Positions 43,369-59,161 of a DNA stretch of 64,000 nt are shown piece by piece. The position numbers and the translations under genes are program-made. The stretch comes from Acidiferrobacterales bacterium (GTDB taxonomy: Bacteria; Pseudomonadota; Gammaproteobacteria; Acidiferrobacterales; SPGG2), in contig JBHIDJ010000003.1 of NCBI GenBank assembly GCA_046760105.1, positions 19,718 through 83,717 on the forward strand. The letters run 5' to 3'. The stretch's first letter is position 1. Every line of letters starts with the position of its first letter. The notes beneath the pieces are model-generated. The model made no database searches. It saw only the letters and a program-made list of their open reading frames with translations, and was not told where the DNA came from.

Positions 43369-43385
43369 TTGTTAATTTTTCACAG
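43369..43385. promoter_or_regulatory. CRP-like operator candidate (TGTTA-N5-TCACA)
   Basis: TTGTTAATTTTTCACAG lies in the divergent intergenic region, 157 nt upstream of the Sel1 gene ATG. It is one mismatch from the palindrome TTGTGAA-TTT-TTCACAA seen at 57099. Confidence 0.4.
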
Positions 43386-43541: not shown

Positions 43542-44324
43542 ATGTGCAGATTGCAGAGAAGAACAGCATCAACCATAGCGGAAGGTGAGGTGAAGGGTGA
43601 AGAATCAGGGAGAACTCTGCTGTTCAGCGGTCTCCTCCTGGGCACGCTCTATTTTTTTACTCCGTGCATAAGCCAGGCCACAGTCACGTACCATCATCAG
43701 GTGGCGGACAAGGCGCTACCTTCGCTACACGAAACAGGCCTCCTCGCGTATCGCTACAGTGAAGCCGACAAGGCAATAGAGCGCGGAAATTATGAGCAGG
43801 CTATCCATATCCTCCAGTTGCTAGCGAAACAGGGAGCCATGAAGTCCCAGTATGATCTAGGGGTCATGTATTACCATGGGCTTGGCGTTAAGCAAGACAA
43901 GGCCGAGGCCATGCGATGGAACCGTATGGCGGCCGAACAGGGGCACATAGCCGCGCAATACAACATGGGCATCGCCTATTCAACGGGGACAGGCGTCGAC
44001 CTAGACGCCGTTAAAGCTGCCGACTGGTGGCGCAAAGCCGCCCTTCAAGGCAGCACCGAGGCACAGTTTAATCTCGGTCTGATGTACGCCCAGGGTGACG
44101 GCGTGACCCAGAATATGATGCAGGCAGCCCGATGGTGGTACGAGGCAGCGACGCATGGCGATGCCGCTGCGCAGTATGCCCTCGGTCTCATGTTTGCCAG
44201 GGGCGATGGCGTTACCCAGAACCTCAACGAAGCGGCGAAGTGGTGGTATCTGGCAGCAAGCCAGGGATTTGAACGCGCCAAGAATGCCTTGAACAAGCTT
44301 CGCCTTATCGTGATACCGAAATAA
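43542..44324 (+). CDS. Sel1-like repeat (SLR) protein, probably secreted
   Basis: About five Sel1 repeats (AQYNMGIAYSTGTGV..D..KAADWWRKAA..G). A hydrophobic signal-like segment LLFSGLLLGTLYFFTPCISQA suggests the start may be downstream of 43542. The last 49 nt lie inside direct-repeat copy A. Confidence 0.85.
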   Translation: MCRLQRRTASTIAEGEVKGEESGRTLLFSGLLLGTLYFFTPCISQATVTYHHQVADKALPSLHETGLLAYRYSEADKAIERGNYEQAIHILQLLAKQGAMKSQYDLGVMYYHGLGVKQDKAEAMRWNRMAAEQGHIAAQYNMGIAYSTGTGVDLDAVKAADWWRKAALQGSTEAQFNLGLMYAQGDGVTQNMMQAARWWYEAATHGDAAAQYALGLMFARGDGVTQNLNEAAKWWYLAASQGFERAKNALNKLRLIVIPK

Positions 44325-44608: not shown

Positions 44609-46315
44609 ATGAAAAACCTCCAAATAGTGCTGAACCTCACGCGCAACCACAATCGTTTCGCCAGCCAGAGCGTTGATCTGATCGCGTCAAACTCGTGGAT
44701 TAGCCAGTTCGCACGGCTCGCCATGACCTCCTCGCTGCCGAACAGCTACTGCATCGGTCTGCCGGGTAACCGCCTCTACGGCGGATGCACCTACATCGAC
44801 ATGATCGAACGGGAGATTTGTCGACTCGCCCGCGAACTGTTCCCGATGGAGCACGTGGTGTTGCAGTTCCTCTCAGGCATGCAGGCCAACATCGGTGCCT
44901 ACAACGCCGTACTCAAACGGGGTAATACTGTAATGGCTGCCCAGTTGAAGCACGGGGGCCACTACAGTCACAACCCGCAAGGCCCATTGCGCCTTTTTTC
45001 GGCAAAACTCGTGCCGGTGCCCTTCGACGACTCCTGTTACAACATCGACGTCGATGAGCTCGCCAAGTCGCTCGCAACGCAGAAGCCAAAGCTTCTTATC
45101 GTGGGCTGGAGCGAGTTTCTGTTCCCCCATCCGCTCCCTGAGATCCGCGCGCTGTGCGACAAGCACGGCGTTCGCTTGATGTACGACATGTCGCACGTTG
45201 CCGGGCTGATCGCTGGGAAAGTCTTCCAGCCCGATGCGACCAAGTATGCCGACATCGCCACCAGCTCAACCGGCAAGTCGCTGCACGCGCCCGACCACGG
45301 CATGGTCTTTTTCAACGACAAGTCGCTAGAGACGGGTGTCCTTGACGCCGTGATGCCCCTGCTTACTTCCAATACGCACCCACACGAGATGGCGGCACTC
45401 GGCGTTGCCTTTGCCGAGATGGTAGAGTTCGGCCGAGACTACGCCTTACAGGTCGTGCGCAACTCCAAGGCCCTGGGCCGTGCGCTCGAAGAGGAGGGGC
45501 TCAAAGTCCTTTATGCGCATCTAGACTATAGCGAGAGCCATACCGTGCTCGTGGAATACGTCGCCTCGAGCGTTGCCGTGGCCCTGCTGGACCGGACCGG
45601 TATTCTGTGCAACACGTGCCCACTTCCATGGGATCCCCCACGTACCGAGACGGGTCTGCGGCTCGGGACTCAGGTCCTAACACGGCGCGGGATGCGCGAG
45701 CCCGAAATGCAGGTGATCGCCCAAGGGATCGCACGGGTACTTCTGCATGGCGAACACCCGGATCGCGTGGCCTACGAGTTTGTCAAGCCACTCGCCCAGC
45801 GATTCGATCGAACGGTGTACTCGTTTGACTTTCACTTCCCGCTGCAGCAGGACTGGTATGGCGCCCCGTACGAAGGCTACCGCGCGGAAAATGTCGACGA
45901 TGTAATCCACGAGCTCGTACCGTTCGCAAACTGCACACCCGAGCAGATCCGATCACTCGCCGAACAGCTTACTCTCGTCGTTATCGACAAGGAACAAGTG
46001 TTATTCGAGACGGGCGATGCCTCGGATAGCGTGTACTTCATCAGTGAGGGAATCGTGGAGATCATGGACCGGTCCGGTAACACGGATGTTGTGATCGGGT
46101 CTCTCGGAGAAGGCAAGCACTTCGGGGAGCTTGGTGTGATGAAAGGCATCAACCGTACCATGACTGCACGAGCACAGCCTCGCACGCGTCTGTTCCGCAT
46201 GAAGGCCGCAAACTTCGAAGAGCTGCTCAAAGACGTCCTACCGCTCAGACAGTACTTCGAGGATTACGTCCACATCATCGAAGAACAAAACCGCTGGCGA
46301 CAGCGCGCCATGTAA
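44609..46315 (+). CDS. SHMT-fold PLP-dependent enzyme fused to a C-terminal cyclic-nucleotide-binding (CAP_ED) domain
   Basis: aa 1-~430 carry GlyA-like motifs: LIASNSW, LYGGC, SGMQAN, HGGHYSH, DMSHVAGLIAG, SSTGKSL (Lys223). aa ~434-545 form a cNMP domain with the cassette FGELGV...RTMTARA. A GAGGGAGGG Shine-Dalgarno precedes the ATG. Confidence 0.85.
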   Translation: MKNLQIVLNLTRNHNRFASQSVDLIASNSWISQFARLAMTSSLPNSYCIGLPGNRLYGGCTYIDMIEREICRLARELFPMEHVVLQFLSGMQANIGAYNAVLKRGNTVMAAQLKHGGHYSHNPQGPLRLFSAKLVPVPFDDSCYNIDVDELAKSLATQKPKLLIVGWSEFLFPHPLPEIRALCDKHGVRLMYDMSHVAGLIAGKVFQPDATKYADIATSSTGKSLHAPDHGMVFFNDKSLETGVLDAVMPLLTSNTHPHEMAALGVAFAEMVEFGRDYALQVVRNSKALGRALEEEGLKVLYAHLDYSESHTVLVEYVASSVAVALLDRTGILCNTCPLPWDPPRTETGLRLGTQVLTRRGMREPEMQVIAQGIARVLLHGEHPDRVAYEFVKPLAQRFDRTVYSFDFHFPLQQDWYGAPYEGYRAENVDDVIHELVPFANCTPEQIRSLAEQLTLVVIDKEQVLFETGDASDSVYFISEGIVEIMDRSGNTDVVIGSLGEGKHFGELGVMKGINRTMTARAQPRTRLFRMKAANFEELLKDVLPLRQYFEDYVHIIEEQNRWRQRAM

Positions 46316-46719: not shown

Positions 46720-47454
46720 CTACCAGCCTGCTGGCAGCTTTTTCTTGATAGTAATCCTCTTGTCTTCGACTCTTATATATCCACCCGTCGCAAGATCTTT
46801 CAAGATGCGGCTTACCATCTCCCTTGATGCCCCCACCATGTTAGCAATATCCTGCTGAGTTAACTTTTCGGAGATTACGAAATTGCCGTTTTCCGCTGTA
46901 GCGAGGTTTGATAATGTTCTCGCAACCCGTCCGTAGACGTCCCTTAGGGCGAGGCCTTTCACGTTATCAGTCAGCATCCGTATTCGATGCGTTAACTCCT
47001 TGATGAGGGTAATCGCAATATCGGGATTCTTGGCCAGACACTCCTTGAAATCGCTCTTCGAGATGATCGAAAACCTTGAGGGCTCCAACGTCATAACAGA
47101 TGCGGACCTGGGGGCGTCATCAAGTAACGCTATTTCGCCAAAGTACTCTCCTGGCCCTTCTATATCGAGGATGATTTCTCTTCCTTGCTCGTCACTCAGA
47201 AACACTTTCACTTTGCCCGTCAGAATAACGTAGAGCGAGTCAGTAGTATCCCCCTCATTGATGACGATGGTATTTCTTGGGAATGTCTTCGTGACTGCGT
47301 GGCCGGATACCGTCGCGAGATCCGCTTGTGCCAGGCTCGCAAAAAGCGGGATGCCCTCGAAGACGCCCCCCGTCTGCGCGGCGGTGAGACCCGTATACCG
47401 GACTGAATTGTAGCCCACCGTCGCTTGCGCTGCGCTCAGATTGCTGGTAGTCAC
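46720..47454 (-). CDS. Crp/Fnr-family transcriptional regulator with a cNMP-binding domain
   Basis: 244 aa. The cNMP cassette is FGEIALLDDAPRSASVMT (RS as in the E. coli CRP cAMP site). The HTH is TQQDIANMVGASREMVSRILKDL, retaining the CRP R-E-x-x-x-R DNA-contact pattern (CRP: SRETVGR). Confidence 0.9.
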   Translation of the reverse strand: MTTSNLSAAQATVGYNSVRYTGLTAAQTGGVFEGIPLFASLAQADLATVSGHAVTKTFPRNTIVINEGDTTDSLYVILTGKVKVFLSDEQGREIILDIEGPGEYFGEIALLDDAPRSASVMTLEPSRFSIISKSDFKECLAKNPDIAITLIKELTHRIRMLTDNVKGLALRDVYGRVARTLSNLATAENGNFVISEKLTQQDIANMVGASREMVSRILKDLATGGYIRVEDKRITIKKKLPAGW

Positions 47455-47550
47455 CGTTCTACCCTCCTTGCGTTCTCACGAACGCGCTAATACTGCGGCT
47501 GCGCTGAAACTACACCAATTATTACTATACATAGATTTAGGAACTGCTCG

Positions 47551-47566
47551 TGTGTAAGATTTCACA
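47551..47566. promoter_or_regulatory. CRP-consensus-like site (TGTGT-N6-TCACA)
   Basis: TGTGTAAGATTTCACA starts 97 nt upstream of the crp-like gene start, adjacent to the N5 palindrome at 47573. Confidence 0.35.
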
Positions 47567-47572
47567 GGGATT

Positions 47573-47589
47573 CTGTGAAAAATTCACGG
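47573..47589. promoter_or_regulatory. CRP-like operator candidate (TGTGA-N5-TCACG)
   Basis: CTGTGAAAAATTCACGG lies 119 nt upstream of the crp-like gene (possible autoregulation). It also forms the inverted repeat TTTCACAG-GGATT-CTGTGAAA with the preceding half-site. Confidence 0.45.
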
Positions 47590-47629
47590 TTTACGGTACC
47601 CACCAGCAACGAGATGGGAAGATTTGTAG

Positions 47630-47673
47630 TGCGAACGAGCTGGTCGGGAGTTCGAGTCTCTCCGGGCGTGCCA
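47630..47673 (+). other. tRNA 3'-half fragment with encoded CCA (tRNA-Arg-like architecture); no 5' half present
   Basis: TGGTC GGGAG TTCGAGT CTCTC CGGGCGT G CCA reads as variable loop, canonical T-arm (G53, T54 T55 C56, A58, C61), 7-nt acceptor strand, discriminator and CCA. No complementary ACGCCCG-type 5' acceptor strand occurs in the preceding ~100 nt, and the anticodon stem cannot pair. Confidence 0.55.
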
Positions 47674-47974
47674 ATAATCAAAGAGTTACACTCACCCTCG
47701 CGGTAGCAGGTCGTGGCGAATCACCAATGAGTCACCACAGGGGCGGCTGTTCAACCGCGTCGGAGAGGCAGACCGAGCAAACATGTAGTCGAGCTGTGAT
47801 CAAGGCTTTTAAATTTTCACAATCTCCCCTCCGTATTGGTACGCCTTCGCCCGGCGCAAGCGGGAATTACGATACGGAAGATCGCAACACCCGTCGCAGT
47901 GCACTCCTTGGGTTAGTCGGCCCGCAAGTAACTCACGCCCCTGCTGAGTGCCGGCATGCCCCGAAGTCGTCAGG

Positions 47975-48838
47975 TCACACAGTTCCAACCGTGAGCACTT
48001 CGAGCATGCTGAAGTAGAGCTCGTCTCGGTCGAGGATATACTCATCAGAGGCGGGGTCAAAATGCGCTCTCCACTGCGCATAGTCTTCCACTGATAGATA
48101 TGGCTCTGCCATTCTCGCGTGCCATTCACTATTGCCGGCGATGTATCGCTTGGCCGCAGGCGTCAACGGCGCGAGCTTCTGAATGGCATAACTCTTCGTC
48201 CACACGTCCTTGAGCCCCGCTTTTAGAAACGACCCATGCGTTTTTCTCCCAGCGAAATTGTCAAAGTACTTTTCTGATCGATCACGAGCGCGCGAGGCCC
48301 CCAGAAGGACCTTCAGGGTCAGGGTAGGATCGATGGGATGTAATATAAAGTCGGCGCCGTCGAAATCCTTGGCCGCAATCCTCCCGCCTTTTCTTGTCAC
48401 GCGCTTCTGCTCCTCCAGAATCCTGAGATGATCCTCGACATAAGTGAAGCAACCTCCGAAAAACACGAAGTCGACCCTGTCATCGTCGAGCGGTATCGCT
48501 GAGAAATCGGCTTGGCGAAAGCTCATCAGGTCCTTCAGTGGGTTATGCTGGCGTTGCTTTTCGGCGTACGCCAACAGCTCCACAGAGATATCAACGCCGA
48601 TGATCCGCCCATCCGGCTTGACCTTCTCTGCAAACAGGGGACTCCATAAACCTGGTCCACATCCCAGGTCCAACACCACATCCCCGGGGGTGAGATAGAG
48701 GTCATCGACCAGTTGCCGTCGCTCGTGTTGCTTTGTTTCATGATGATCCAGGAGCCACCGGAGCTCGGTCAGCTCCAGGCCATCCGGACCGGTGTTGAAT
48801 GCGACATCGACGGACATGGGACCCCCTTGTTGTGACAT
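47975..48838 (-). CDS. Class I SAM-dependent methyltransferase
   Basis: 287 aa with SAM motif I VLDLGCGPGLW and a downstream acidic loop IGVDIS; Methyltransf_11/25-like. Confidence 0.85.
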   Translation of the reverse strand: MSQQGGPMSVDVAFNTGPDGLELTELRWLLDHHETKQHERRQLVDDLYLTPGDVVLDLGCGPGLWSPLFAEKVKPDGRIIGVDISVELLAYAEKQRQHNPLKDLMSFRQADFSAIPLDDDRVDFVFFGGCFTYVEDHLRILEEQKRVTRKGGRIAAKDFDGADFILHPIDPTLTLKVLLGASRARDRSEKYFDNFAGRKTHGSFLKAGLKDVWTKSYAIQKLAPLTPAAKRYIAGNSEWHARMAEPYLSVEDYAQWRAHFDPASDEYILDRDELYFSMLEVLTVGTV

Positions 48839-49241
48839 TGGGAACCGTATTTCCCATTGTTCACGGCGCCATACGGCGCCAGTTTATCCTGAAGCCGGCC
48901 GCAATAGTTGCCAGGGGGCGGCCACATCCCGACTCAGGACGCGCTGAGCGGTAGGCCTGTCGGCGGGCCTCAGAGCTGTTTTGAAATTCTGAGTGACCCC
49001 TGTGCCGAACATAGAGACAACAACGAGGCTATTGTCAAATTATACGCCGAAAGACCGTCCCAGCCCGAATTGACATTTCACCAAATTAGTCGAATCCTTT
49101 GTTCTTTACGGCGAGGTAAGAGGTAATATACGGTGCCGTACTCAGAACGCACTATAAAGACATAAACGAGCTACTCTCAACGAGTCCCGTGCCGTTCAAA
49201 TCAGAGGGCACCGCCCCGCGACCTCTGGCGAGGAGACAACT

Positions 49242-50891
49242 ATGAGCGAGCGTAAAGAGCACGCGTATATTCGGGTGCTCAGGAGACAGCTTGCCGAAGG
49301 AAAGATCGACCGTCGCGAGTTTCTGCGCACCGTAACCCTTCTCGGCTTATCCGCGAGCGCCGCCTATGCTTTTGCCGGCAAGGCAAAAGCTGAGACCAAG
49401 CCGGCTATGCCCAAGGGCGGCATCCTTCGGATAAGCATGCCCGTTAGGAAAATCGAAGACCCGCACACCTTCAGCTCGCTTTCGGACAGCAACGTCGTCC
49501 GACAGGTCACCGAATATCTGACCAAAACCGGCCACGACAACATTACGCGTCCGTACCTTCTGCAATCATGGAAGCCCAGCGAGGATCTAAAGACCTGGAC
49601 GCTGCACTTACGCCGGGGCATCAAATGGCACAATGGCCGCGACTTCACGGCTGACGATGTCATCTGGAACCTCAAGCACGTGCTCGATGACAAAACAGGC
49701 TCATCGGTCCTGGGCCTTATGAAGGGCTATATGCTCGAGGAAGACGGCGAGGGAAAAACCCGGCTGTGGGATGCGAACGCGATCGAGAAGGTCGATTCGT
49801 TCACCATCCGGCTGAACTGCAAAGTACCCCAGCTAGCGGTGCCCGAGCATCTGTTCCACTACCCGCTGCTCATTCTCGACCCTGAAGAAGGCGGGGTCTT
49901 CGGACCCGGCTCCAGCGGCACGGGTGCGTTCGAGCTGGTCGAACATGAGGTCGGCAAGCTCTCGGTGCTCAAAGCCCGTAAGGACTACTGGGGCGACGGA
50001 CCGCATCTGGACACCCTCGAATTCATCGACCTGGGCGGTGACCCACAAACGGAGGTTTCCGCCTTCCGCACGAAAAAGGTCGATGGCGCAGACTCCATTG
50101 ACGTGGTCGAGTTCGAAGCGCTGAAACTCATGCCGCACCTTAAGAGGTACGACGCGGTAACGGCAGGTACGGGGCTGGCCCGCGGGAAGGTGACTGAGAA
50201 ACCATTCGACGATGCCAGAGTGCGCAAGGCGCTCCGGCTTGCGATCGACCCCCGCCTCACCCAAGAGCTGGTGCGGGGCGTGCTCGGCTCCCCGGCGGAG
50301 CATCATCACGTTTCGCCTATCCACCCCGAATACGCGAAGCTCCCTCCCATGTGGGTTGACAAGAAACGGAACGTCGAGGCTGCCAAGAGACTCCTGGCCG
50401 AGGCGGGCTATTCCAGGGGTATCGACCTAGGGAGGATCGATTGCAGGGCATCACCGGACTGGGAGGCCAGTGCCGCGCAAGCGATCGTCGAGCAGTGGAG
50501 GGATATTGGCGTGCGCTGTGGGGTCAATACGATGCCGGACGCAAAGTACTGGGAAATCTGGGATAAGACCCGGTTGGGCTTCACCGCCTGGTCCCACCGA
50601 CCGCTCGGCATCATGGTGCTGGGTCTCGCCTATCGCTCTGGCGTACCGTGGAACGAATCCTCGTATTCAAACCCCGAATTTGATCGGCTGCTGACCGAGG
50701 CCGAGGGCGAGCCCGATGTTGACAAACGGCGCGAGGTGATGGCCAAGCTCGAAAAAATCATGCAGGAGGATGGCCCCATTGTTCAGCCGTTCTGGCGGAC
50801 TGTGGTGACCTTTATGGACAAGCGGGTGAAGGGCTTCGAAATGCACCCAACCTTCTATATCTTTGGTAACGAGTTGGCCATCGAATCTTAA
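49242..50891 (+). CDS. ABC-transporter family-5 (peptide/nickel/opine type) substrate-binding protein, Tat-exported, orphan
   Basis: 549 aa. Twin-arginine leader DRREFLRTVTLLGLSASAAYAFA, with family-5 SBP-like sequence throughout. No permease or ATPase genes are nearby. Confidence 0.85.
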   Translation: MSERKEHAYIRVLRRQLAEGKIDRREFLRTVTLLGLSASAAYAFAGKAKAETKPAMPKGGILRISMPVRKIEDPHTFSSLSDSNVVRQVTEYLTKTGHDNITRPYLLQSWKPSEDLKTWTLHLRRGIKWHNGRDFTADDVIWNLKHVLDDKTGSSVLGLMKGYMLEEDGEGKTRLWDANAIEKVDSFTIRLNCKVPQLAVPEHLFHYPLLILDPEEGGVFGPGSSGTGAFELVEHEVGKLSVLKARKDYWGDGPHLDTLEFIDLGGDPQTEVSAFRTKKVDGADSIDVVEFEALKLMPHLKRYDAVTAGTGLARGKVTEKPFDDARVRKALRLAIDPRLTQELVRGVLGSPAEHHHVSPIHPEYAKLPPMWVDKKRNVEAAKRLLAEAGYSRGIDLGRIDCRASPDWEASAAQAIVEQWRDIGVRCGVNTMPDAKYWEIWDKTRLGFTAWSHRPLGIMVLGLAYRSGVPWNESSYSNPEFDRLLTEAEGEPDVDKRREVMAKLEKIMQEDGPIVQPFWRTVVTFMDKRVKGFEMHPTFYIFGNELAIES

Positions 50892-51029
50892 GCAGGCGGA
50901 CCAGGGCGCTCAAGAAGCTCACATTCCAGCGTGCATGACGCCCGCTTAGAACCACCTAGAGGACGTTGCCGCAGCGCGCAGTGACCGCCACGCGACCGGG
51001 AGCGGCGGCGATATCAGGAGAGCACTATC

Positions 51030-53291
51030 ATGTTGCGATTGCTTTCGATCCGAGACCGACTCTTCCTTCTGCTGATGCTGCTCGTCGCGTCGCTCGTCTT
51101 CACCAACCTCCTGCTGATCAACCAGACGAGAAACCTCGAGCACTCCATCCGTCAACAGGCGCACAACATCGATCGCATGGTGAAAGTCGATGCAGCGGTC
51201 AAGACCTTCGGCGACCTTAAGTACTGGCTGACTGCCTGGGCACTTAACGTCGACGCCCATGCCGAGAAGCGTGCCAAGGACGCCCGCGACCTCCTAAACG
51301 GACAGCTATCCGAGCTCAAACCGGATCTGCCGGAGGTGGTCGCCGATGTGCCTGGGCAGGCGGCCGATCTGGTGAGCGAGACAAGCGCGGCCGCGGAAGC
51401 GTTCGCGCGTGATAACTATGCCGTTGCCAAGGGCCTGATCCGCAGGGGGCATGGGCATGTTTTGGCGGTTGATGCCAAGCTTTCAACGGTGGTGGGTAGC
51501 CTCCAAGAAAAAGCTCAGAGTGCTGCCGCGAGAGCGTTGCGGGAGACTTCGCAGGATGTTCAAACCGCCTTATGGATCGTCGTGCTGGTGAGCCTCGTGG
51601 CCGCCACCTTGACCTTTCTAATCGTGCGCTCGGTGGTCATGCCGCTGCGACAAGTGGGCGGGGTGATAGGCGCTATGAGCGCTGGCGAGATGGACGTCCC
51701 TCTGCCGCCAGCGAGCCGTGATGAGATCGGGGATATGGTGCAGGTGCTCACCCTGTTCCGGGAGAACGTCGCACGACGCAGGGCAATCGAACAGGACTTG
51801 CGCGAGGTGCTCGATGCCATCGAATACGGCATCCTGTTCATGGATTCGAATTTGCAGATTCGCATCGATAACCGCGCCTACCGCGAAATCTGGGGTATCC
51901 CCGAGAGCTTTCTCGCCCAGAAGCCCCACCTGCGGGAGTTAATGGAGTACAACCGCGAACACGAGATCTACGATGTCCCCGAGGGTGGGTGGGAGAACTA
52001 CGTCGAAGGCCGTATCGACTCCATTCAAAAGGGGAGTATTCCCCCGACGGAGCTGCACCGCGCCGACGGCAAGATAATCCAGTATCAGTGCGTCGCCCTT
52101 CCAGACGGCGGTCGGATGCTCACGTATTTCGACATTACCGAGATCAAGCGCGCCGAGCAGGCGCTGCGCGAGAGCGAGGAGCGTTACGCCCTGGCGATGA
52201 TGGGCGCCAATGAAGGGCTGTGGGACTGGGACTCGCGCGCCAATGAGATTTACGTCTCCCCGCGCTTCAAGACGATCTTCGGGATGGAGACGGAGGCCCT
52301 CAAAATCACGCCAGCCGACTGGGAGGCCTGCATCCATCCGGATGACCGTGCCCACTACCGCCAGGCATTTCAGGCGCACTTGCGCGGTGACACCGAGTTC
52401 TACCAATCCGAATGCCGCGTGCTGTTGCCCGATGGAGCCCAGCGCTGGGTCCGGATGCGCGGCATCGGCCTGCGCGATGAACGCGGCCGGGTATATCGCA
52501 TGGCCGGATCCGTCGGCGATATCACTGCGGGCAAGCAAGCTGAAATCGAGCTACGCCAAGCCAAGGATGAGGCCATGCAAGCGAGCAACGCCAAAACCCA
52601 GTTCCTCGCCAACATGAGCCATGAGCTGCGCACACCTCTGAACGCCATCTTGGGTTATACGGAGCTGATCCTGGACCAGGTATACGGCGAGGTGCCCGAC
52701 CAGACCCGGGATGTTCTCGAGCGCGTGGAGCAGAGCGGCCGCCACCTACTTGGGCTCATCAACGACGTTCTCGACCTCTCCAAGATCGAGGCAGGTCGCT
52801 TCACGCTGCCCCTCGCCGACTATTCCATGCAGGAGGTGGTCGGGAACGTCATTAGCACAGTCGAATCATTGGGGGCGGAAAAAAATCTGGCCCTGAACGT
52901 TTCGCTTCCACCTGATCTGCCTATCGGAAGGGGGAACGAACAACGCATCACCCAGGTCCTGCTGAATCTCATCGGGAACGCAATCAAGTTTACTGACGTC
53001 GGGGAGGTTTCAGTAGAGGTAACGGTATCCGACGAAAACTTTGTCGTTTCCGTGTCCGACACCGGGATCGGCATATCGGAAGCGGATCAAGCGGAGATTT
53101 TCAAAGAATTTCAGCAGGCGGACAATTCCGTCACACGCGAACGTGGGGGCACAGGCCTCGGTCTCGCCATCGCCAGGCGCATGATCGAAATACAGGGGGG
53201 GCGCGTGTGGGTTCAGTCGACCCGGGGCAAGGGTTCGACCTTTTCGTTCTCACTGCCCATCCGGGTCGAGCCACAGCCGGAGGCGACATGA
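51030..53291 (+). CDS. Sensor histidine kinase (2 TM + periplasmic helical domain, HAMP, 2x PAS, HisKA, HATPase_c)
   Basis: H-box FLANMSHELRTPLNAILGYTE, N-box LLNLIGNAIKFT, G-boxes DTGIGI and GGTGLGLAI. Two PAS-like blocks occupy aa ~270-520. Confidence 0.9.
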   Translation: MLRLLSIRDRLFLLLMLLVASLVFTNLLLINQTRNLEHSIRQQAHNIDRMVKVDAAVKTFGDLKYWLTAWALNVDAHAEKRAKDARDLLNGQLSELKPDLPEVVADVPGQAADLVSETSAAAEAFARDNYAVAKGLIRRGHGHVLAVDAKLSTVVGSLQEKAQSAAARALRETSQDVQTALWIVVLVSLVAATLTFLIVRSVVMPLRQVGGVIGAMSAGEMDVPLPPASRDEIGDMVQVLTLFRENVARRRAIEQDLREVLDAIEYGILFMDSNLQIRIDNRAYREIWGIPESFLAQKPHLRELMEYNREHEIYDVPEGGWENYVEGRIDSIQKGSIPPTELHRADGKIIQYQCVALPDGGRMLTYFDITEIKRAEQALRESEERYALAMMGANEGLWDWDSRANEIYVSPRFKTIFGMETEALKITPADWEACIHPDDRAHYRQAFQAHLRGDTEFYQSECRVLLPDGAQRWVRMRGIGLRDERGRVYRMAGSVGDITAGKQAEIELRQAKDEAMQASNAKTQFLANMSHELRTPLNAILGYTELILDQVYGEVPDQTRDVLERVEQSGRHLLGLINDVLDLSKIEAGRFTLPLADYSMQEVVGNVISTVESLGAEKNLALNVSLPPDLPIGRGNEQRITQVLLNLIGNAIKFTDVGEVSVEVTVSDENFVVSVSDTGIGISEADQAEIFKEFQQADNSVTRERGGTGLGLAIARRMIEIQGGRVWVQSTRGKGSTFSFSLPIRVEPQPEAT

Positions 53292-53653
53292 ACGGGCGGA
53301 TTCTGGTAGTCGAGGATCAAGAGGATAACCGTAAGATCATGCGCGACCTGCTGACCAACGCCGACTACGAAGTGATCGAAGCGGTGACCGGCGACGAGGG
53401 GGTGGCCATGGCGCAAACCCACGTTCCCGACGTCATCCTCATGGACATAAACCTCCCCGGGCTCGATGGATACGAAGCGACGCGCCAGATCAAAGCCAAT
53501 CCCGCGCTCCACCACATTCCGATCATCGCAGTCACCTCCTACGCGCTAAGCGGCGACGAGGCAAAGGCCCGGGAGGCCGGCTGCGACGCCTATTTCAGCA
53601 AACCGGTCAGCCCGCGCGCGCTCCTGGCCAAGGTGCGCGAGTACACCGGATAA
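53288..53653 (+). CDS. Single-domain response regulator (CheY-like)
   Basis: MNGRILVVEDQEDN..., ILMDINLPGLDG, AVTSYA, FSKP. The ATG at 53288 overlaps the kinase stop as ATGA. Confidence 0.88.
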   Translation: MNGRILVVEDQEDNRKIMRDLLTNADYEVIEAVTGDEGVAMAQTHVPDVILMDINLPGLDGYEATRQIKANPALHHIPIIAVTSYALSGDEAKAREAGCDAYFSKPVSPRALLAKVREYTG

Positions 53654-53672
53654 GCGCCCCGAGGAGCAAATT

Positions 53673-54842
53673 GTGAGAACGCCACCGCAGATCCTCATCG
53701 TGGACGACAACCCGACGAACGTGGATATCCTTCAGGCACGCCTCACCGTGCACGGCTATGACATTCTCACGGCGAGCGACGGCGAGCAAGCTGTAAGCAT
53801 CGCCAGAGAAAGGCAGCCAGATCTCATTTTGTTGGATGTCATGATGCCAAAAATGGATGGCATCGAGGTCTGTCGACACCTCAAAGGCGATCCCTCGCTG
53901 CCGTTTATGCCGATTATCCTGGTCACAGCTAAGTCGGATTCGAAGGACGTGGTCGCCGGTCTGGAGGCGGGTGCCGAGGAGTATCTGACCAAGCCCGTAG
54001 ACCAACAGGCGCTCGTGGCAAGGGTCAAGTCGATGTTGAAGATTAAGGACCTCCACGATACGACCCAAGAGCAGGCGGCCCAGCTCTCGCAGTGGAACCG
54101 GACGCTCGAGGAGCGCGTCAAGGAGCAACTCGCAGAGCTGGAGCGCATGAGCCAGCTGAAGCGATTCTTCTCTCCGCATCTCGCGAAGCTCATCGTGTCC
54201 TCCGGAGACAAGAGCTTCCTCAAAAGCCACCGACAGGATATCACCGTGCTCTTCTGTGACCTCCGCGGGTACACGACATTCGCGACGAGCGCCGAGCCCG
54301 AAGAGGAAATCCAGCTGCTGGACGAGTACCACAAGGTCGTCGGTTCCTTGGTATTCGGCTTCGAGGCAACCCTGGAGCACTACGCCGGGGATGGGATCAT
54401 GGCGTTCTTCAACGACCCGATACCCTGTCCTTCTCCGGCGGTGCGCGCCATCCGGATGGCATTGGCGATGCAACGGGAGGTCGGCGAGTTGCTCGAGGGG
54501 TGGCGGAAACGCGGCTTCGACTTGGGGTTCGGCGTGGGGATTGCCATGGGGTACGCCACGTTGGGACAGATCGGTTTCGAAGGCCAATTTCACTACGCCG
54601 CCGTCGGCTCTGTGTCTAACCTTGCGGCGCGCCTTTGCGACAAGGCCCAAAGCGGGCAGATCCTGATCTCCCAGCGGGTCTACGCGGAACTCGAGGGGCT
54701 GGCAGAGGCTGAACCGGTCGGAGAGCTCGCTCTCAAGGGATTCGAGAAGCCCTTACCCGCCTATAACGTGCTCGCAATAAAGGCCGATGAATCTCCTCAC
54801 GAGGAAACTCAGTCTCCGGGGTCGAGCGACGGGAGGCGGTGA
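53673..54842 (+). CDS. Response regulator with a class III adenylate/guanylate cyclase output domain
   Basis: REC (ILIVDDNPTN, ILLDVMMPKMDG, VTAKS, LTKP), a coiled-coil linker, then CYCc (ITVLFCDLRGYTTFA..., GDGIMAFFNDP, GIAMGYATLGQIGF..., NLAARL). Confidence 0.88.
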   Translation: MRTPPQILIVDDNPTNVDILQARLTVHGYDILTASDGEQAVSIARERQPDLILLDVMMPKMDGIEVCRHLKGDPSLPFMPIILVTAKSDSKDVVAGLEAGAEEYLTKPVDQQALVARVKSMLKIKDLHDTTQEQAAQLSQWNRTLEERVKEQLAELERMSQLKRFFSPHLAKLIVSSGDKSFLKSHRQDITVLFCDLRGYTTFATSAEPEEEIQLLDEYHKVVGSLVFGFEATLEHYAGDGIMAFFNDPIPCPSPAVRAIRMALAMQREVGELLEGWRKRGFDLGFGVGIAMGYATLGQIGFEGQFHYAAVGSVSNLAARLCDKAQSGQILISQRVYAELEGLAEAEPVGELALKGFEKPLPAYNVLAIKADESPHEETQSPGSSDGRR

Positions 54843-55107
54843 CGCGTGCATTCGGCCCTTGCGGATAACAGACAGATATCATGTATTGACCTACCCGTTC
54901 TCAAGCGACGTGAGTTAGGTCGGCCGTAAGCAATGGGATGGACTCCTCCTCACCTCAACGGCATCTAGGTGCCAGACTATATCGGCTTCATCCACATAGG
55001 ACCATGTTCCACATCGTTGAATCACGGTTAGCCTTGCCCAATTGAGACAAGAGGGGCAGTCGGTTTGTAGGTCGGCCTAGGAGATCGCGTCACATAAGGA
55101 TCATTCC

Positions 55108-56340
55108 GTGCAAAGCAGCCTTCAACAGCATCCCGTCCTCGTTCTGGGTGCCTTCTTCCCAGCTCTTGGGGTTGTCCACTCCTTGGCGCCCAAGGGCGCC
55201 ACATGCTGGATCTGCGATTCACGCCGAAACGTTGCTGGTTGGTCCCGTCACGCGCACTACCGGTGCATACCCGATCCCCGACTCGACGACCGGAGAATGA
55301 TCGATCGGCTGCTTGCACTCGCGCGCACGGTCGGAGGTAAGCCGATCCTGGTGCCCACGGACGATCATTTTGCGCAAGTGCTTGCCCGCCATCGGGTTGA
55401 ATTGGAAGAGGCCGCGATCCCATGCGTCGCACCGAGTGAAGCTGTCGAGCTGCTTGTCGATCAACAGCGGTTCTGTGAATGGGGGCAAGCGAACGATGTC
55501 AGCTGTCCAAAAGCTGTCCGGGTCAGCGAAGCCCTCGGCTCGCTTGCTCTGCCCTTTGTTGCGAAGCCCATCAACAAGTCGTCCTTCGAAGTGACTGCGC
55601 GCAAGCTCCCACGTGGTCAACAGGCGAGCGACTTGCGTTTCAAGTTCATCCGCAGCGCGGAGGAATGGCAGGTTTACAAAGATGAAATCTGCCCCAATCT
55701 CGAGCATATTCTGGTCCAGGAGTTCATCGAGGGTACGACCACCGATATGTACTCGATCGGCGTCTACGCCGATCGGCAATCCTGCATCAAGGGGCTCTTC
55801 GTTGGTCGGAAGCTTCGCGGTTACCCTGCCTTGTACGGGAACACGAAACTTGGACAGAACGACCGCGTTCCCAACGATGTGTTGGACGAAGTGACGCGCA
55901 TCGTCCGAGAACTTGCCTACACCGGCATCGCTGAGTTCGAATATAGGCGGGAACCCACGACCGGCCACTTTCGCCTTATCGAGATCAATCCGAGATGCTG
56001 GAGCTGGATCGGTGCCACCGCTGTGTCCAAGGCCGACATTCCTTGGATCGCCTTTCAGGATTTGACCGGCGCGAAACTAGGCGGCGTTATCCAAAATGGC
56101 TCCCCAGGATCGATCAAATACGTGCAGATCATGTCGGACTTCGCAAACGTGTTCTTGCGCTACCGCTGGGATTATCCTGCTTGGCTCATGGGGCCGCGGG
56201 CCTGGTGGAACAGTCTCAAAGCTGAAAAGTTAGTGATTGCGGAATTCGACCGGGGTGACTGGCCTGTCGCGCTTTTCTACTTCGCATTGGTCTTACAGAA
56301 TGCCGCCATACTTCTTATTAGGCGACTAAGGAAGCGTTGA
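55108..56340 (+). CDS. ATP-grasp domain protein (COG3919-like predicted carboxylate-amine ligase)
   Basis: 410 aa, GTG start with AAGGA upstream. Pre-ATP-grasp Rossmann-like N-terminus (VLVLGAFFPALGVVHSLAPKG), a central LVQEFIEG motif and EFEYRREPTTGHFRLIEINPR, typical of ATP-grasp C-lobes. Confidence 0.7.
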   Translation: MQSSLQQHPVLVLGAFFPALGVVHSLAPKGATCWICDSRRNVAGWSRHAHYRCIPDPRLDDRRMIDRLLALARTVGGKPILVPTDDHFAQVLARHRVELEEAAIPCVAPSEAVELLVDQQRFCEWGQANDVSCPKAVRVSEALGSLALPFVAKPINKSSFEVTARKLPRGQQASDLRFKFIRSAEEWQVYKDEICPNLEHILVQEFIEGTTTDMYSIGVYADRQSCIKGLFVGRKLRGYPALYGNTKLGQNDRVPNDVLDEVTRIVRELAYTGIAEFEYRREPTTGHFRLIEINPRCWSWIGATAVSKADIPWIAFQDLTGAKLGGVIQNGSPGSIKYVQIMSDFANVFLRYRWDYPAWLMGPRAWWNSLKAEKLVIAEFDRGDWPVALFYFALVLQNAAILLIRRLRKR

Positions 56341-56443
56341 TTCCTGGACCGGCTCCGCTCACGGTCCAACTGTTGATTGCGCAGCTGCAGACGGCGGTCG
56401 CAACGCTGATTAATACCTTTGATGACTCACAGGAGGAACGAAG

Positions 56444-56818
56444 ATGCGGGTTGTGCGAAAGGACTTTTCGGACCTTTTGAAGCTGTTCATATTGGCGATC
56501 TGTGCATGGGGTTTACCTGAACGCCATTGGTCCGGCGTTTGCCGCAGGCTCACCAAGGCAGAGTTGTGGAAGAACAAGAAAAGGACTGAGACTGCTGTCC
56601 ACCGAATTCGAACCGCATGCGACGGTCGGGCCATACCCCTCAGCCCGGAAGACGTGGAGCTCGAACGCGCGGCGGCGCATTACCTGGATCGCCTTCAGAT
56701 CTTCGCCGATTATCGCCCCCGCGGCTGGTCTCCAGAGATCGAGTTACACGGGCGAGAGCATCTGGATGAGGCCCTCGCCCAGGGCCGGGGCGCAATCCTC
56801 TGGGCGCTGCACGGATGA
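56444..56818 (+). pseudogene. Possible truncated lysophospholipid/lipid-A acyltransferase (LPLAT, LpxL-like) N-terminal fragment
   Basis: The 124-aa ORF (AGGAGG Shine-Dalgarno) ends ...IELHGREHLDEALAQGRGAILWALHG*, exactly where LpxL/LPLAT proteins carry the H(x)4D catalytic block. No continuation appears in any frame downstream. It could instead be an intact small protein. Confidence 0.4.
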
Positions 56819-57098
56819 ACCCCAGTGCGGTTGGTCTAAACAAACGGATTCTAAGCTTGCCATTCTGAACAGACGTCTCTGTGGCATTAATAACGGCCGA
56901 CCTAAAAAAGTCGTGCAAGACAGTCCTCGCTCGCTCGCTTAGGCCATCCGCCCTCCGCGGCGGCGATGCGGGACAGGAAATACCATAGTGCTCCAGGTGA
57001 GCCGCTGCCCAGCGAGCTCTCTTTGACCTAACGCACACAAATACCCCTTTGAGGCCGCTCGAAGCAGCATCTTGCCTGTTGCCTGCTGTTGTATAGGG

Positions 57099-57115
57099 TT
57101 GTGAATTTTTCACAA
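57099..57115. promoter_or_regulatory. Perfect 17-bp palindrome, CRP-like operator candidate (TGTGA-N5-TCACA)
   Basis: TTGTGAATTTTTCACAA, followed 5 nt later by an extra half-site TTGTGAA (57121..57127). A TATAGT -10-like hexamer lies at 57159..57164. Confidence 0.5.
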
Positions 57116-57187
57116 ATTGTTTGTGAAAACCTCCCTGGAGTACTGATGCTCACCGCAATATAGTGAGGATCGCCATCGGGCTCGTGG

Positions 57188-57204
57188 GCGTGAATTTCTC
57201 ACAA
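57188..57204. promoter_or_regulatory. CRP-like operator candidate (CGTGA-N5-TCACA)
   Basis: GCGTGAATTTCTCACAA lies 89 bp downstream of the perfect palindrome, in the same ~700-bp non-coding stretch upstream of the second Sel1 gene. Confidence 0.4.
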
Positions 57205-57512
57205 TTTCTGATGGCAACGCTACATAGAGCGAGCAACCAGGAGTCTAGTAAGGTGACAAGCATCCAAACATTTAGCGGGTTATCCGGGCGAGGGCTCGCG
57301 CTGCAGACGCGAGGCTTATCCGCTGCGGCACCCACAGTGACTATGAACAGAAGGAATGACGAGACGATACAAGAGTACGAACGCCCGATACCTGGGGTAA
57401 CTGGTAGGGACGTTTTTTGTGCATGGATTGTAGTCGCTACATTTCTGCTCGGGTTGCTTGTGTTGTCCGTGGTTTAACGAGAACCCGAAAAATAGCAAGA
57501 GAGAATTCGCGA

Positions 57513-57938
57513 ATGCGGTTGACCAAACTCATAGCCTCGCTATTTGTCAGAGGTGGGCAAACGCTCCACATGCGAACTTATAAGGAAGGATTGGCCGCCT
57601 ATAAGTCTGGGCACTATAGCGCGGCAGTAGCTAGTCTAAGGCCGTATGCTAAGAAGGGCGATGCACTGGCGCAGCTGACGCTTGGCAACATGTACAAGAA
57701 AGGTCTTGGGGTGCCGAAGGACCTCGATCAAGCGGCGCATTGGTACCGCAAAGCGGCGACTCAGGGGGATCCTGACGCGAAGTTTAATCTGGGAATCATG
57801 TACATCAGGGGGGACGGTGTAACCGGCGACAAAGGTCAAGCGTTAAACTGGCTGAAGGACGCGGCAGAACAGGGCCACAGACAAGCCAGGCTCGCTTATG
57901 AATACATCACGAGGCAAGAGTACCAGAACGTCTGTTGA
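57513..57938 (+). CDS. Sel1-like repeat protein (short)
   Basis: About three Sel1 repeats (AQLTLGNMYKKGLGVPKDLDQAAHWYRKAATQGDPDAKFNLGIMYIRGDGV...). I prefer the ATG at 57513 over the longer track ORF from 57417. Confidence 0.8.
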   Translation: MRLTKLIASLFVRGGQTLHMRTYKEGLAAYKSGHYSAAVASLRPYAKKGDALAQLTLGNMYKKGLGVPKDLDQAAHWYRKAATQGDPDAKFNLGIMYIRGDGVTGDKGQALNWLKDAAEQGHRQARLAYEYITRQEYQNVC

Positions 57939-57981
57939 CCGGCGATCGCAGCAAAGGTCAGCATTGATGCGCACGCACTGA

Positions 57982-58278
57982 CGCAAACTTCAGTTTCGCA
58001 TCGGCATCGACCTGAGGGATGTCATCGTCGATCGACACCACATTTATGGCGACGGCGTCAATGTGACAGTGCGCTTTCAAAGTCTGGCTGAGCCGGGTGG
58101 CATTTGTCTCTCCCAAACGGCGCACGAAGCCATCAGCAACAAACTACCGCTTACCTACGAATTCATAGGCGAGCAATCCGCGAAGAACATTAGCAAGCTG
58201 CTACCGGCCTTGCGTGTCAGGATGGAACCGGGCTACCAGCCAACCGATATCCCTGCCCTCATATCCCAACTAGTGTGA
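57982..58278 (+). pseudogene. 3' fragment of a class III adenylate/guanylate cyclase gene
   Basis: The frame reads, straight after a TGA at 57979: RKLQFRIGIDLRDVIVDRHHIYGDGVNVTVRFQSLAEPGGICLSQTAHEAISNKL..FIGEQSAKNISKLLPALRV. This matches the C-terminal half of CYCc domains (RIGIh.G.v....d.yGdgVN.AARLesLAepGgI.iS). The N-terminal half is absent and AARLES has degenerated to TVRFQS. Confidence 0.6.
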
Positions 58279-58289
58279 ATACTTCACAG
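58273..58289. promoter_or_regulatory. CRP-like operator candidate (TGTGA-N5-TCACA; 15-bp perfect core)
   Basis: GTGTGAATACTTCACAG lies 213 nt upstream of the ATG at 58502. Confidence 0.5.
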
Positions 58290-58501
58290 TCGCCGCGCCT
58301 AACCGATCACAGCGATCGGATGGTGACTTGGATACAGTGCACGCTACAAGACGGCCTTACACAGGCACTTGTATTGGCGGAGATCCGCGCTAGCTAGAGT
58401 CCGAGTCGTAGCTCATGCAGGTGGCACTCCGCAAGCCAGGCGTCGACCTGGATCTACGAGTTAGAGTTAACCGCGAAAATACTTCAGAAAGGAGAGTCAA
58501 A

Positions 58502-59161
58502 ATGGTAGCAACGTCTGAGAAGTTTGAAGAGCTTGAAAAGCTTAATGAGGTAGAAGCGTTACGCGAGCAGGAACACGAGGGAGAGGTTCCTGAAGTAGAG
58601 GATGGGGAACAGGGTGACGAGTCTCCACAGTTTTTTGAGGAACATGGAACGTTTCCTGAATTAGAATACGGAAGGCACGGGGGCTGGCCTGGCAAGTACC
58701 GAAAATTTGGAAAGTGTAAGTTTGAAGTCGGGCTTCCCCACTACCCGCCCCTCACGGGTGCCATAAGAGCGGAAGTCTACGAGAATGGTAAACCCTCAAA
58801 TTGCATCATCCGCGCAGACAAGGAGTGGTCTGTTCGAGTTCATTGGTATCTGAAGGGTGCACTGCAAGACTGTATCTGCGGATATTGGTGTCTCAATTTG
58901 TTCATGGAGTCCATCGGCCCGGGACCTGAGCTTGTGATCCCCTATCATAAACTCATTCCGCTGAGGCCCTGCGGAAATGGCCATTATTGGTACGAGATCA
59001 AGGTTCCGGCAGGCTTCATCACCCCGAAGCACTGCTCGATCCCTTACCAGCTGGTCGCTGGCGTCACTTATCGTACGCCTTGCAAGAAGCCGGGCCCGAT
59101 ATCGGGGTTCTGCAAGCTGCCAATGATTCAATTTTATGAATCCAGCAAGAGATTTACATAA
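58502..59161 (+). CDS. Hypothetical protein: acidic N-terminal region plus Cys/aromatic-rich C-terminal domain
   Basis: The ATG at 58502 is preceded by AAAGGAGAG. The first ~50 aa are Glu-rich (EKFEELEKLNEVEALREQEHEGEVPEVEDGEQGDE). The rest holds about 11 Cys (GKCKFEV, QDCICGYWCLN, RPCGNGHYWY, KHCSIPY, TPCKKPGPISGFCK). No family recognised. GC content is visibly lower than in neighbouring genes. Confidence 0.6.
   Translation: MVATSEKFEELEKLNEVEALREQEHEGEVPEVEDGEQGDESPQFFEEHGTFPELEYGRHGGWPGKYRKFGKCKFEVGLPHYPPLTGAIRAEVYENGKPSNCIIRADKEWSVRVHWYLKGALQDCICGYWCLNLFMESIGPGPELVIPYHKLIPLRPCGNGHYWYEIKVPAGFITPKHCSIPYQLVAGVTYRTPCKKPGPISGFCKLPMIQFYESSKRFT

Follow-up and report, generated by a model that had tools for sequence, protein, structure and literature searches.

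The question raised by this locus is whether several genes for the synthesis and binding of cyclic nucleotides, lying close together on a contig (JBHIDJ010000003.1) of an Acidiferrobacterales bacterium known from a metagenome-assembled genome, form a single signalling circuit. The preliminary description of the sequence had proposed such a circuit, in which a signal acts through a sensor kinase on a receiver-fused class III cyclase (hereafter, receiver-cyclase), and the resulting cyclic nucleotide is read by a Crp-family regulator and by an enzyme with a cyclic nucleotide-binding domain (CNBD). We analyzed the full 64-kb stretch, called the window below, together with comparison loci and contigs from other genomes and metagenomes, designated by L-numbers. 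Our analysis points, with a probability slightly above even, to a self-contained two-component cyclase cassette that is juxtaposed with, and would feed, a lineage-specific neighbourhood of Crp, Sel1 and CNBD genes; the proposed chain from signal to metabolism is plausible.

The gene content of the window was established by Pfam and NCBIfam scans, which recovered all the features of the preliminary description at the same coordinates and intact, except for one gene fragment already recognized as such. Three genes make up the cassette:

51030..53291, + strand: membrane sensor histidine kinase (HAMP, PAS_7, PAS_3, HisKA, HATPase_c)
53288..53653, + strand: single-domain receiver of 121 residues, DivK-like and PleD-REC1-like (Pfam and PDB matches)
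53673..54842, + strand: receiver-cyclase of 389 residues, consisting of a receiver, a 53-residue helix and a class III cyclase (Guanylate_cyc, Pfam)

Kinase and receiver genes share an ATGA, in which the receiver ATG overlaps the TGA stop codon of the kinase; a GGAGG lies 8 nt ahead of this start. The GTG start of the receiver-cyclase gene follows after a 19-nt gap and is preceded by GAGGAG. Shine–Dalgarno motifs precede all three operon genes, and the translational coupling seen earlier was borne out, phospho-acceptor and catalytic residues being intact. The kinase has two hydrophobic (transmembrane) segments around approximately 150 periplasmic residues, followed by HAMP-PAS_7-PAS_3-HisKA-HATPase_c; HisKA and HATPase_c were identified in Pfam with E values of 2.5e-23 and 2.4e-29, respectively, and the H-box SHELRTPLN was present in the translation. 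The sole match to the periplasmic part was weak (TarH, E 0.03). The protein ends only 9 residues past HATPase_c. The single receiver keeps ILMDINLPG, the Thr of AVTSY and the Lys of SKP, and the phospho-acceptor of the fused receiver, D55, was invariant among 126 close homologues of the receiver-cyclase. No Hpt domain was found in the Pfam scans of window genes or in the gene tables of L087-L089; therefore, direct transfer from the kinase to both receivers is the economical model.

Related cassettes were collected by a genome scan (L007-L012), by contig look-ups and by a metagenome scan with the linker and cyclase only. The genome scan was run with the full-length protein, and 74 of its 80 loci matched the receiver domain alone, just L007-L012 being useful. 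Open reading frames (ORFs) of the collected loci were scanned with hidden Markov models (HMMs) built for this analysis. Thousands of receiver-cyclase relatives with 65-86% identity were present in metagenomes, and a receiver-fused cyclase of the window type was found at 63 loci. A separate single receiver was encoded immediately upstream of it at all 44 loci with enough sequence, and a kinase core, with a transmitter 39-81% identical to that of the window, was found upstream at 33 of 34 testable loci. The single receiver showed 65-84% identity across proteobacterial and Ilumatobacteraceae cassettes (32-43% in the actinobacterial L011 and L012); this identity and its universal presence argue that it is probably integral to the cassette. 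The sensory parts of the kinases vary by locus, being of the TorS-type sensor-HAMP-PAS_7, sCache_4-HAMP-GAF or GAF-GAF hybrid kind, or PAS only; hybrid kinases with extra receivers were encoded in L011, L123, L142-146 and L152-156. Since the sensors vary and the core is constant, the conserved unit consists of the kinase core, the single receiver and the receiver-cyclase, with interchangeable inputs. A cultured carrier of the cassette is Mycolicibacterium hodleri DSM 44183 (L012). In actinobacterial cassettes (L011:2350-7645, L012:6139-8054, L143, L145, L149), genes for a PknG-like Ser/Thr kinase and for VWA and FHA proteins precede, which suggests a lineage-specific coupling of this branch to Ser/Thr-kinase signalling.

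Both receivers have PleD REC1 and DivK as their best solved relatives, the top PDB matches of the single receiver being PleD REC1 (1.6e-30) and DivK (1.8e-28). Regarding its role, the phosphate sink suggested in the preliminary description is one of three equally open options, the others being a DivK-like allosteric modulator and a relay step. At 31401-31757 (- strand), the window has a third stretch that codes for a receiver domain; it shares 28% identity with the single receiver.

Upstream of the operon, the window encodes a solute-binding protein (SBP):

49242..50891, + strand: SBP of the SBP_bac_5 family, 139 nt upstream of the kinase gene

Its content of G+C at third codon positions (GC3) is like that of the operon, and no transporter genes lie nearby. 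No homologue of it was found near any other cassette locus, and other SBP families occurred in just two other contexts, L088 (Peripla_BP_6) and L162 (three PF04392 genes). A general role of the SBP as co-sensor of the cassette was rejected because of this lack of conservation; a local role as co-sensor for the window kinase is possible.

The AlphaFold model of the receiver-cyclase (predicted local distance difference test score, pLDDT, 88) consists of a receiver (residues 1-110), a single 53-residue helix (111-163) into which the last helix of the receiver runs on, a short helix and a cyclase domain (186-369). The cyclase domain superimposed on CyaB of Pseudomonas aeruginosa (3r5g) with a Foldseek TM-score of 0.91 and a root-mean-square deviation of 2.0 Å; CyaB was also the best solved match by sequence (E 8.8e-31, 110 bits). 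The only full-length analogues in the PDB were PleD and WspR, both receiver-GGDEF proteins. The active sites of class III cyclases form across a dimer interface. The metal-binding aspartates D196 and D240 align with those of CyaB; among the 126 homologues, D240 and the transition-state residues N316 and R320 were invariant, and D196 was replaced, by Glu, only in L008.

The preliminary description had left the choice between cAMP and cGMP to the base-specifying residues. In the alignment with CyaB, these were His236 and Ala309, a pair that matches neither the ATP nor the GTP pattern. Adenylyl cyclases keep Lys and Asp at these positions, and guanylyl cyclases have Glu and a variable second residue (PMC4215837). 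The adenylyl-cyclase signature (Lys with Asp or Thr) was absent from the window cyclase; as to the guanylyl-cyclase signature, the first position has His, not Glu, and the Ala at the second is compatible with it. The Lys position was occupied by His in 87 and by Arg in 38 of the 126 homologues and by Lys in none; the Asp/Thr position held Ala, Gly, Met or Ser. An exhaustive search, with linker and cyclase as query, gave 1,525 representative clusters at E<1e-30, with many different N-terminal regions and sensor domains. In the best 150 of these 1,525 representatives (50% identity clusters), Lys was absent throughout from the Lys position, which had Arg (76), His (39) or Gln (17), and the second position had Ala, Gly, Thr or Ser. 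Since no member of the clade has the canonical Lys, the product is not readable from sequence. We consider cAMP the most likely product, and reasonably probable, because of the nearest relatives of the cyclase and because of the kind of Crp that accompanies the cassette. Our literature search found no characterized receiver-cyclase without the Lys and no characterized member of this clade.

On both sides of the cassette and the SBP gene lie the remaining genes of interest:

43542..44324, + strand: first Sel1-repeat protein (Pfam, and identity to L180 and L183 genes)
44609..46315, + strand: SHMT-like pyridoxal phosphate (PLP) enzyme (residues 8-372) with a C-terminal cNMP_binding domain (residues 458-541), hereafter SHMT-CNBD
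46720..47454, - strand: Crp-family regulator of 244 residues (cNMP_binding, HTH_Crp_2)
57417..57938, + strand: second Sel1-repeat protein, with a start probably near 57513
57982..58278, + strand: decayed cyclase-CNBD fusion gene, of which only residues 94-177 are matched
58415..59161: ORF of 248 residues with no Pfam match, downstream of the sixth palindrome site described below

The 244-residue form of Crp is real, since its orthologues are 76-84% identical over the full length; the NCBI annotation gives a 210-residue form. The N-terminal extension of approximately 30 residues is conserved in the closest relatives. The protein scored below the cut-off of the NCBIfam CRP equivalog NF008732 (134.9 vs 266 bits). 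Its cassette FGEIALLD..RSAS aligns to G71, E72, R82 and S83 of E. coli CRP, the position of S128 is occupied by Thr, and the recognition helix reads REMVSR (R-E-x-x-x-R). Ser or Thr at the S128 position is a cAMP-type contact; a cGMP-specific protein has Glu there, and cUMP receptors have Asn (PMC11224242). By sequence comparison, both CAP-type domains that had been proposed as readers, those of Crp and SHMT-CNBD, keep the phosphate-binding cassette.

Orthologues of Crp were found in L183 (84% identity) and L180 (76%). In both, crp is divergent from a CHASE2-cyclase gene and lies near a cyclase-CNBD fusion gene and Sel1 genes; L180 additionally encodes a CNBD-only protein and a second Crp. The local concentration of cyclic-nucleotide genes reported in the preliminary description thus recurs in the lineage, since these orthologues likewise sit among cyclase and CNBD genes, and it is the identity of the cyclases that differs between genomes. 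The relatives have a CHASE2-cyclase and a cyclase-CNBD fusion next to crp; in the window, the receiver-cyclase is the only intact cyclase and the cyclase-CNBD gene is decayed. Apart from the genes described here, tblastn searches with cyclase and CNBD queries were negative over the whole 64 kb. The cyclases next to crp in L180 and L183 are also non-canonical, with Asp/Arg in the CHASE2-cyclase (L180:7329-9647 and L183:1275-3533) and His/Glu in the cyclase-CNBD fusion (L180:798-1880 and L183:5084-6217). At the edge of this neighbourhood in L180 (18401-20738), two TIR-domain genes (TIR_2; ThsB_TIR) were present; no TIR gene was seen in the examined part of the window.

The first Sel1 gene of the window shares 50-53% identity with the Sel1-like gene located after Crp214 in L180 and 64-70% with a Sel1 fragment in L183; the second is 65-74% identical to the L180 Sel1 gene adjoining the cyclase-CNBD gene. 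Judged by these identities and positions, both window Sel1 genes are orthologous to Sel1 genes of L180 and L183. The fragment at 57982..58278 matched the Pfam cyclase profile only at positions 100-156 of 183 (E 1.6e-4) and was 57-58% identical to residues 94-177 of cyclase-CNBD fusion proteins of relatives (360-377 residues). The preliminary description had regarded it as a 3' fragment of another class III cyclase gene, and its nature as a cyclase fragment was confirmed; its alignment to the fusion proteins shows that the decayed gene encoded a cyclase-CNBD protein. Because the alignment is limited to residues 94-177, the N-terminal half with both metal-binding aspartates is missing, as is the CNBD. 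The window yielded no trace of a CHASE2-cyclase or of that part of the decayed gene which would encode the CNBD. Homologues of the fragment-type cyclase (44-48% identity) lie within 10 kb of the cassette at three unrelated loci (L089:11785-13482, L100:5599-5883, L122:2750-2992), the one in L089 with a transposase gene before it and a TPR gene after it.

In L138, L147/L150 and L162, the receiver-cyclase gene is followed, directly or at a short distance, by a gene for a Crp that is 53-57% identical to that of the window. The L150 and L162 copies have Thr at the S128 position as well, and so does the L138 ORF, which runs off the end of its contig. In L162 (1-4359), genes for a cyclase, an SBP (PF04392), an SBP, a Crp and an SBP follow one another on one strand with minimal gaps; thus, Crp and the cyclase appear to share an operon with three SBPs that have no adjacent transporter genes. 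From gene order, the association of cyclase and Crp appears real, but it is confined to a minority of loci.

The intergenic regions of this part of the window contain a recurrent palindrome and, ahead of crp, further promoter elements:

43237..43249: GTGAAATATTTAC, a palindrome site with 1 mismatch to GTGAA-N3-TTCAC, ahead of the Sel1 gene at 43542
43371..43383: palindrome site GTTAATTTTTCAC, 1 mismatch, upstream of the same Sel1 gene
47524..47529, - strand: crp -10-like element TATAGT, invariant in the upstream alignment
47551..47566: CRP-like box with canonical spacing, TGTGTAAGATTTCACA, 1 mismatch to TGTGA-N6-TCACA
47574..47590: block ACCGTGAATTTTTCACA (crp strand), invariant in four contigs and holding an exact GTGAA-N3-TTCAC
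57101..57113: GTGAATTTTTCAC, an exact copy of the palindrome ahead of the second Sel1 gene
57190..57202: GTGAATTTCTCAC, a palindrome site with 1 mismatch, also ahead of the second Sel1 gene
58275..58287: GTGAATACTTCAC, an exact copy that overlaps the stop codon of the cyclase fragment and lies 140 nt ahead of the ORF at 58415-59161

The palindrome GTGAA-N3-TTCAC had six sites with at most 1 mismatch in the window vs 1.75 expected, and none of 100 shuffles reached six. All six were located in gaps between annotated genes, within 43.2-58.3 kb. In other, unrelated loci, 1.94 Mb in total, the exact palindrome had a frequency of 0.07 per 64 kb; three exact copies were present in L180, upstream of crp and of both Sel1-type genes, and one in L183, upstream of crp. 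In the alignment of the crp upstream regions of the window, L183, L184 and L180 (four contigs, three lineages), the block ACCGTGAATTTTTCACA, the -10-like TATAGT and the Shine–Dalgarno sequence were invariant, and the sequence diverged further upstream. The left half of the canonical box at 47551-47566, CCTGTGAA, was kept in L183 and L180; the box would be centred near -41.5 if transcription starts approximately 7 nt past the -10 element. Crp is the obvious candidate to bind the palindrome. The canonical CRP box was dropped as a regulon marker, since it was not enriched (8 sites with at most 2 mismatches in the window vs 21 in shuffles, and one site with at most 1 mismatch vs 1.5 expected); the box of the crp promoter is of interest through its conservation alone. 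The region between the ATP-grasp gene and the second Sel1 gene (56341-57416, approximately 1 kb) contains two palindrome sites and no recognizable gene. An Rfam scan over 42-60 kb gave no match.

The SHMT-like part of SHMT-CNBD was identified in Pfam (SHMT, E 2e-64) and scored 333.3 against the cut-off of 335 of NCBIfam NF000586; the PLP lysine motif STGKS is visible in its sequence, and the phosphate-binding cassette FGELGV...RT is intact. The family comprises approximately 40 clusters with 47-79% identity, which form a separate clade; its nearest CNBD-less relatives include cyanobacterial and diatom proteins. No residue was conserved across the family at the C-helix position that contacts the base, and the ligand is therefore not assignable. 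Our literature search found no description of an SHMT-CNBD fusion. In other genomes, genes for a CoA-transferase and a receiver-SpoIIE protein (L097, L098) or PAS-STAS genes (L099) were its neighbours. In L090 (10001-15100) and L091 (10001-15063), both from one JGI sample, genes for SHMT-CNBD, GCS2 (carboxylate-amine ligase), a 340-350-residue protein with two CNBD-like stretches and GATase_4 follow one another in conserved order on the same strand; this run looks like a small biosynthetic operon with two components that bind cyclic nucleotides. In L092 (8054-12724) and L093 (5328-9998), the genes beside SHMT-CNBD encode a CNBD-Haem_oxygenas_2 fusion and a GAF-sulfotransferase, which are more enzymes fused to small-molecule sensors. 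The link of SHMT-CNBD to a circuit in the window would rest on its adjacency there and on the palindromes upstream of the same-strand Sel1 gene that precedes it.

Taken together, these data are consistent with the following mechanism. The membrane kinase would sense an extracellular signal, possibly aided by the adjacent SBP, autophosphorylate and pass the phosphate directly to both receivers encoded downstream. Phosphorylation of D55 would register two chains via the 53-residue helix and thereby assemble the class III active site, and the assembled dimer would make a 3',5'-cyclic nucleotide, most probably cAMP. The DivK-like receiver, sharing the kinase, may act as a feedback modulator or as a competing phosphate acceptor. 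Crp would bind the cyclic nucleotide and probably regulate its own gene, the Sel1 genes and possibly SHMT-CNBD downstream of one of them, (T)GTGAA-N3-TTCAC(A) being the putative operator that ties crp, the two Sel1 genes and the CNBD-fused proteins together. The SHMT-like enzyme may read the same nucleotide pool allosterically.

A number of observations weigh against so close a connection between the cassette and its neighbours. The co-occurrence of these genes in related genomes, whose absence the preliminary description had said would refute its circuit, mostly fails at the level of gene neighbourhoods: no SHMT-CNBD, SBP_bac_5, methyltransferase or ATP-grasp homologue was found with the cassette in approximately 80 related loci, Sel1 homologues were likewise missing from the flanks of the collected cassette loci, and the cassette occurred at approximately 60 other loci without the Crp, SHMT-CNBD, SBP or ATP-grasp of the window. 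Cassette flanks totalling 422 kb gave 7 CNBD matches, four of them the Crp with 53-57% identity. SHMT-CNBD was never beside Crp or a cyclase in the other genomes examined, and its neighbours were different in every relative context examined. Neither palindrome nor CRP box was found upstream of the SBP gene or of the kinase operon, and the operon is therefore not visibly in the crp/Sel1 regulon. The spacer between the TGTGA and TCACA halves of the palindrome is 5 nt vs 6 nt in known CRP sites, and another regulator could bind it. GC3 was 0.74-0.80 in the genes for SBP, kinase, receiver, receiver-cyclase and SHMT-CNBD and 0.57-0.64 in crp, the methyltransferase gene and both Sel1 genes; the contrast between the block from SBP to cyclase and the crp, methyltransferase and Sel1 genes is compatible with separate acquisition, a weak signal because an FAD oxidase gene (59806-61206) also reaches 0.81. 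The base-specifying residues of the cyclase are non-canonical, and cAMP is therefore an assumption. Much of this evidence favours a mobile, independent cassette that landed in, or replaced part of, the Crp/Sel1/CNBD neighbourhood and whose product joins a cell-wide pool, supplied also by other cyclases of the genome, without dedicated readers nearby. Such an origin would account for the spread of the cassette through many phyla at approximately 50-86% identity with unrelated flanks, for its composition unlike that of crp and the Sel1 genes, for the missing operator ahead of the kinase operon, for the different cyclases in relatives of the Crp neighbourhood and for the lack of synteny of SHMT-CNBD with any cyclase. 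However, a related Crp downstream of the receiver-cyclase at three independent loci is not explained by chance; moreover, class III cyclases flank crp in all three genomes of the lineage, and the cassette cyclase is the sole intact one within 64 kb. We consider it a possible, though less likely, explanation. As for the single circuit of the preliminary description, its step from cyclase to Crp has some comparative support, both from these three loci and from the other cyclases beside crp in L180 and L183, whereas its enzymatic branch lacks synteny and its kinase operon lacks a Crp-type site.

A functional connection between cassette and Crp, as preferred here, leaves two further points to be weighed, namely the identity of the nucleotide and the route of the phosphate. 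It is unlikely, in our estimate, that the cyclase makes cGMP or a pyrimidine cyclic nucleotide, or is promiscuous, and that the neighbouring CNBD proteins read that nucleotide. The complete absence of Lys from the Lys position, both in the 126 close homologues and in the 150 representatives, speaks for this, as do the non-canonical His/Glu and Asp/Arg pairs of the relatives' neighbouring cyclases. The spread of Ala, Gly, Thr and Ser at the second position is as described for guanylyl cyclases (PMC4215837), and the specificity residue of the cCMP cyclase EaPycC, R142, lies four residues ahead of the metal-binding D146, i.e., at the Lys position (PMC11224242), a correspondence that serves as a lead. 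On the other hand, the nearest solved relative by sequence and fold, CyaB, is an adenylyl cyclase, the guanylyl-type Glu is absent from the Lys position, and the cAMP-type Thr occupies the S128 position of Crp in the window, L150 and L162 (and in the truncated L138 copy). Rv0386 (Gln/Asn) and Rv1900c (Asn/Asp) of Mycobacterium tuberculosis are still adenylyl cyclases. Membership in Pycsar was rejected, since PycC profiles scored 62 bits on the window cyclase vs 61.5 bits for the generic Pfam domain and no CNBD-TM or CNBD-TIR effector gene is adjacent, the neighbours being the receiver and an ATP-grasp gene. Rather improbable is the wider proposition that the Lys-less clade routinely makes cGMP, a pyrimidine cyclic nucleotide or a mixture under two-component control in soil and sediment bacteria, with the nearby Crp, SHMT-CNBD and cyclase-CNBD as dedicated readers acting via the N5-spaced operator. 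Regarding the phosphate, a multistep phosphorelay, from the kinase to the single receiver, on to an Hpt protein encoded elsewhere and then to the receiver-cyclase, seems quite improbable. The single receiver lies between kinase and receiver-cyclase in all 44 loci and some cassettes have hybrid kinases with additional receivers, as a relay would suggest; against it, Hpt was unreported in the Pfam scans of the window and in the gene tables of L087-L089, the window kinase stops 9 residues after HATPase_c, and in the closest analogue, DivK with PleD, the phosphate reaches both receivers directly.

The control of class III cyclases by receivers is a recognized architecture of which few examples have been studied. 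The parts described here are of known kinds, and none of the findings upsets current understanding; the variants of note are the Lys-less clade, the DivK-like design of the cassette, the N5 palindrome and the SHMT-CNBD fusion. The palindrome of unusual spacing defines a candidate regulon linking crp, Sel1 genes and CNBD-fused proteins, and the SHMT-CNBD fusion would place a one-carbon or amino-acid reaction under direct control of a second messenger. A CNBD fused to a catalytic or structural protein is also known from the mycobacterial acetyltransferase Pat and from family 2B encapsulin shell proteins, both weak NCBIfam matches of the window CNBDs; in the window, the partner of the CNBD is an SHMT-like PLP enzyme. 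The Crp protein resembles CRP of E. coli and Vfr of Pseudomonas in its G-E...R-S cassette, Ser/Thr base contact, R-E-x-x-x-R helix and CRP-like box in its own promoter, but it differs in its score under the equivalog cut-off, in its N-terminal extension of approximately 30 residues and in the enriched palindrome with a spacer of 5 instead of 6 nt.

Pycsar PycC shares the class III fold with the window cyclase, and the Arg of EaPycC at the Lys position is the commonest residue in the window clade; the window cyclase itself has His, is under two-component control, has no TM or TIR effector adjacent and gave only a generic PycC HMM score. CyaB (3r5g) has the same metal-binding and transition-state residues, but Lys (DKFVGD) and Thr at the base-specifying positions, and its N-terminal part is a MASE2 membrane domain, not a receiver. 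CyaC of Spirulina and Anabaena is a class III adenylyl cyclase that becomes active when it phosphorylates itself and passes the phosphate to its receiver (Kasahara and Ohmori 1999, as cited in PMC1183210). As in the window, a receiver governs a class IIIb-type cyclase, and the catalytic domain of CyaC (1wc0/1wc1) is a close structural match; CyaC, however, combines receiver, kinase, receiver and cyclase in one chain and has Lys/Thr, whereas the window has separate genes and His/Ala.

In the DivJ/PleC-DivK-PleD system of Caulobacter, as in the cassette, one shared kinase is combined with a single receiver and a receiver-fused, dimerization-dependent nucleotide cyclase with a helical linker, and the order of the divK-pleD operon, single receiver then receiver-cyclase, is that of the window. 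The differences are that the window output is a class III mononucleotide cyclase, not GGDEF, that one receiver domain, not two, precedes this output, that its kinase is encoded in the same operon and that the cassette has no known cell-cycle context. The portable cassette with its swapped sensors thus mirrors DivK-PleD with a mononucleotide output, and Mycolicibacterium hodleri DSM 44183 offers an experimental entry point to it.

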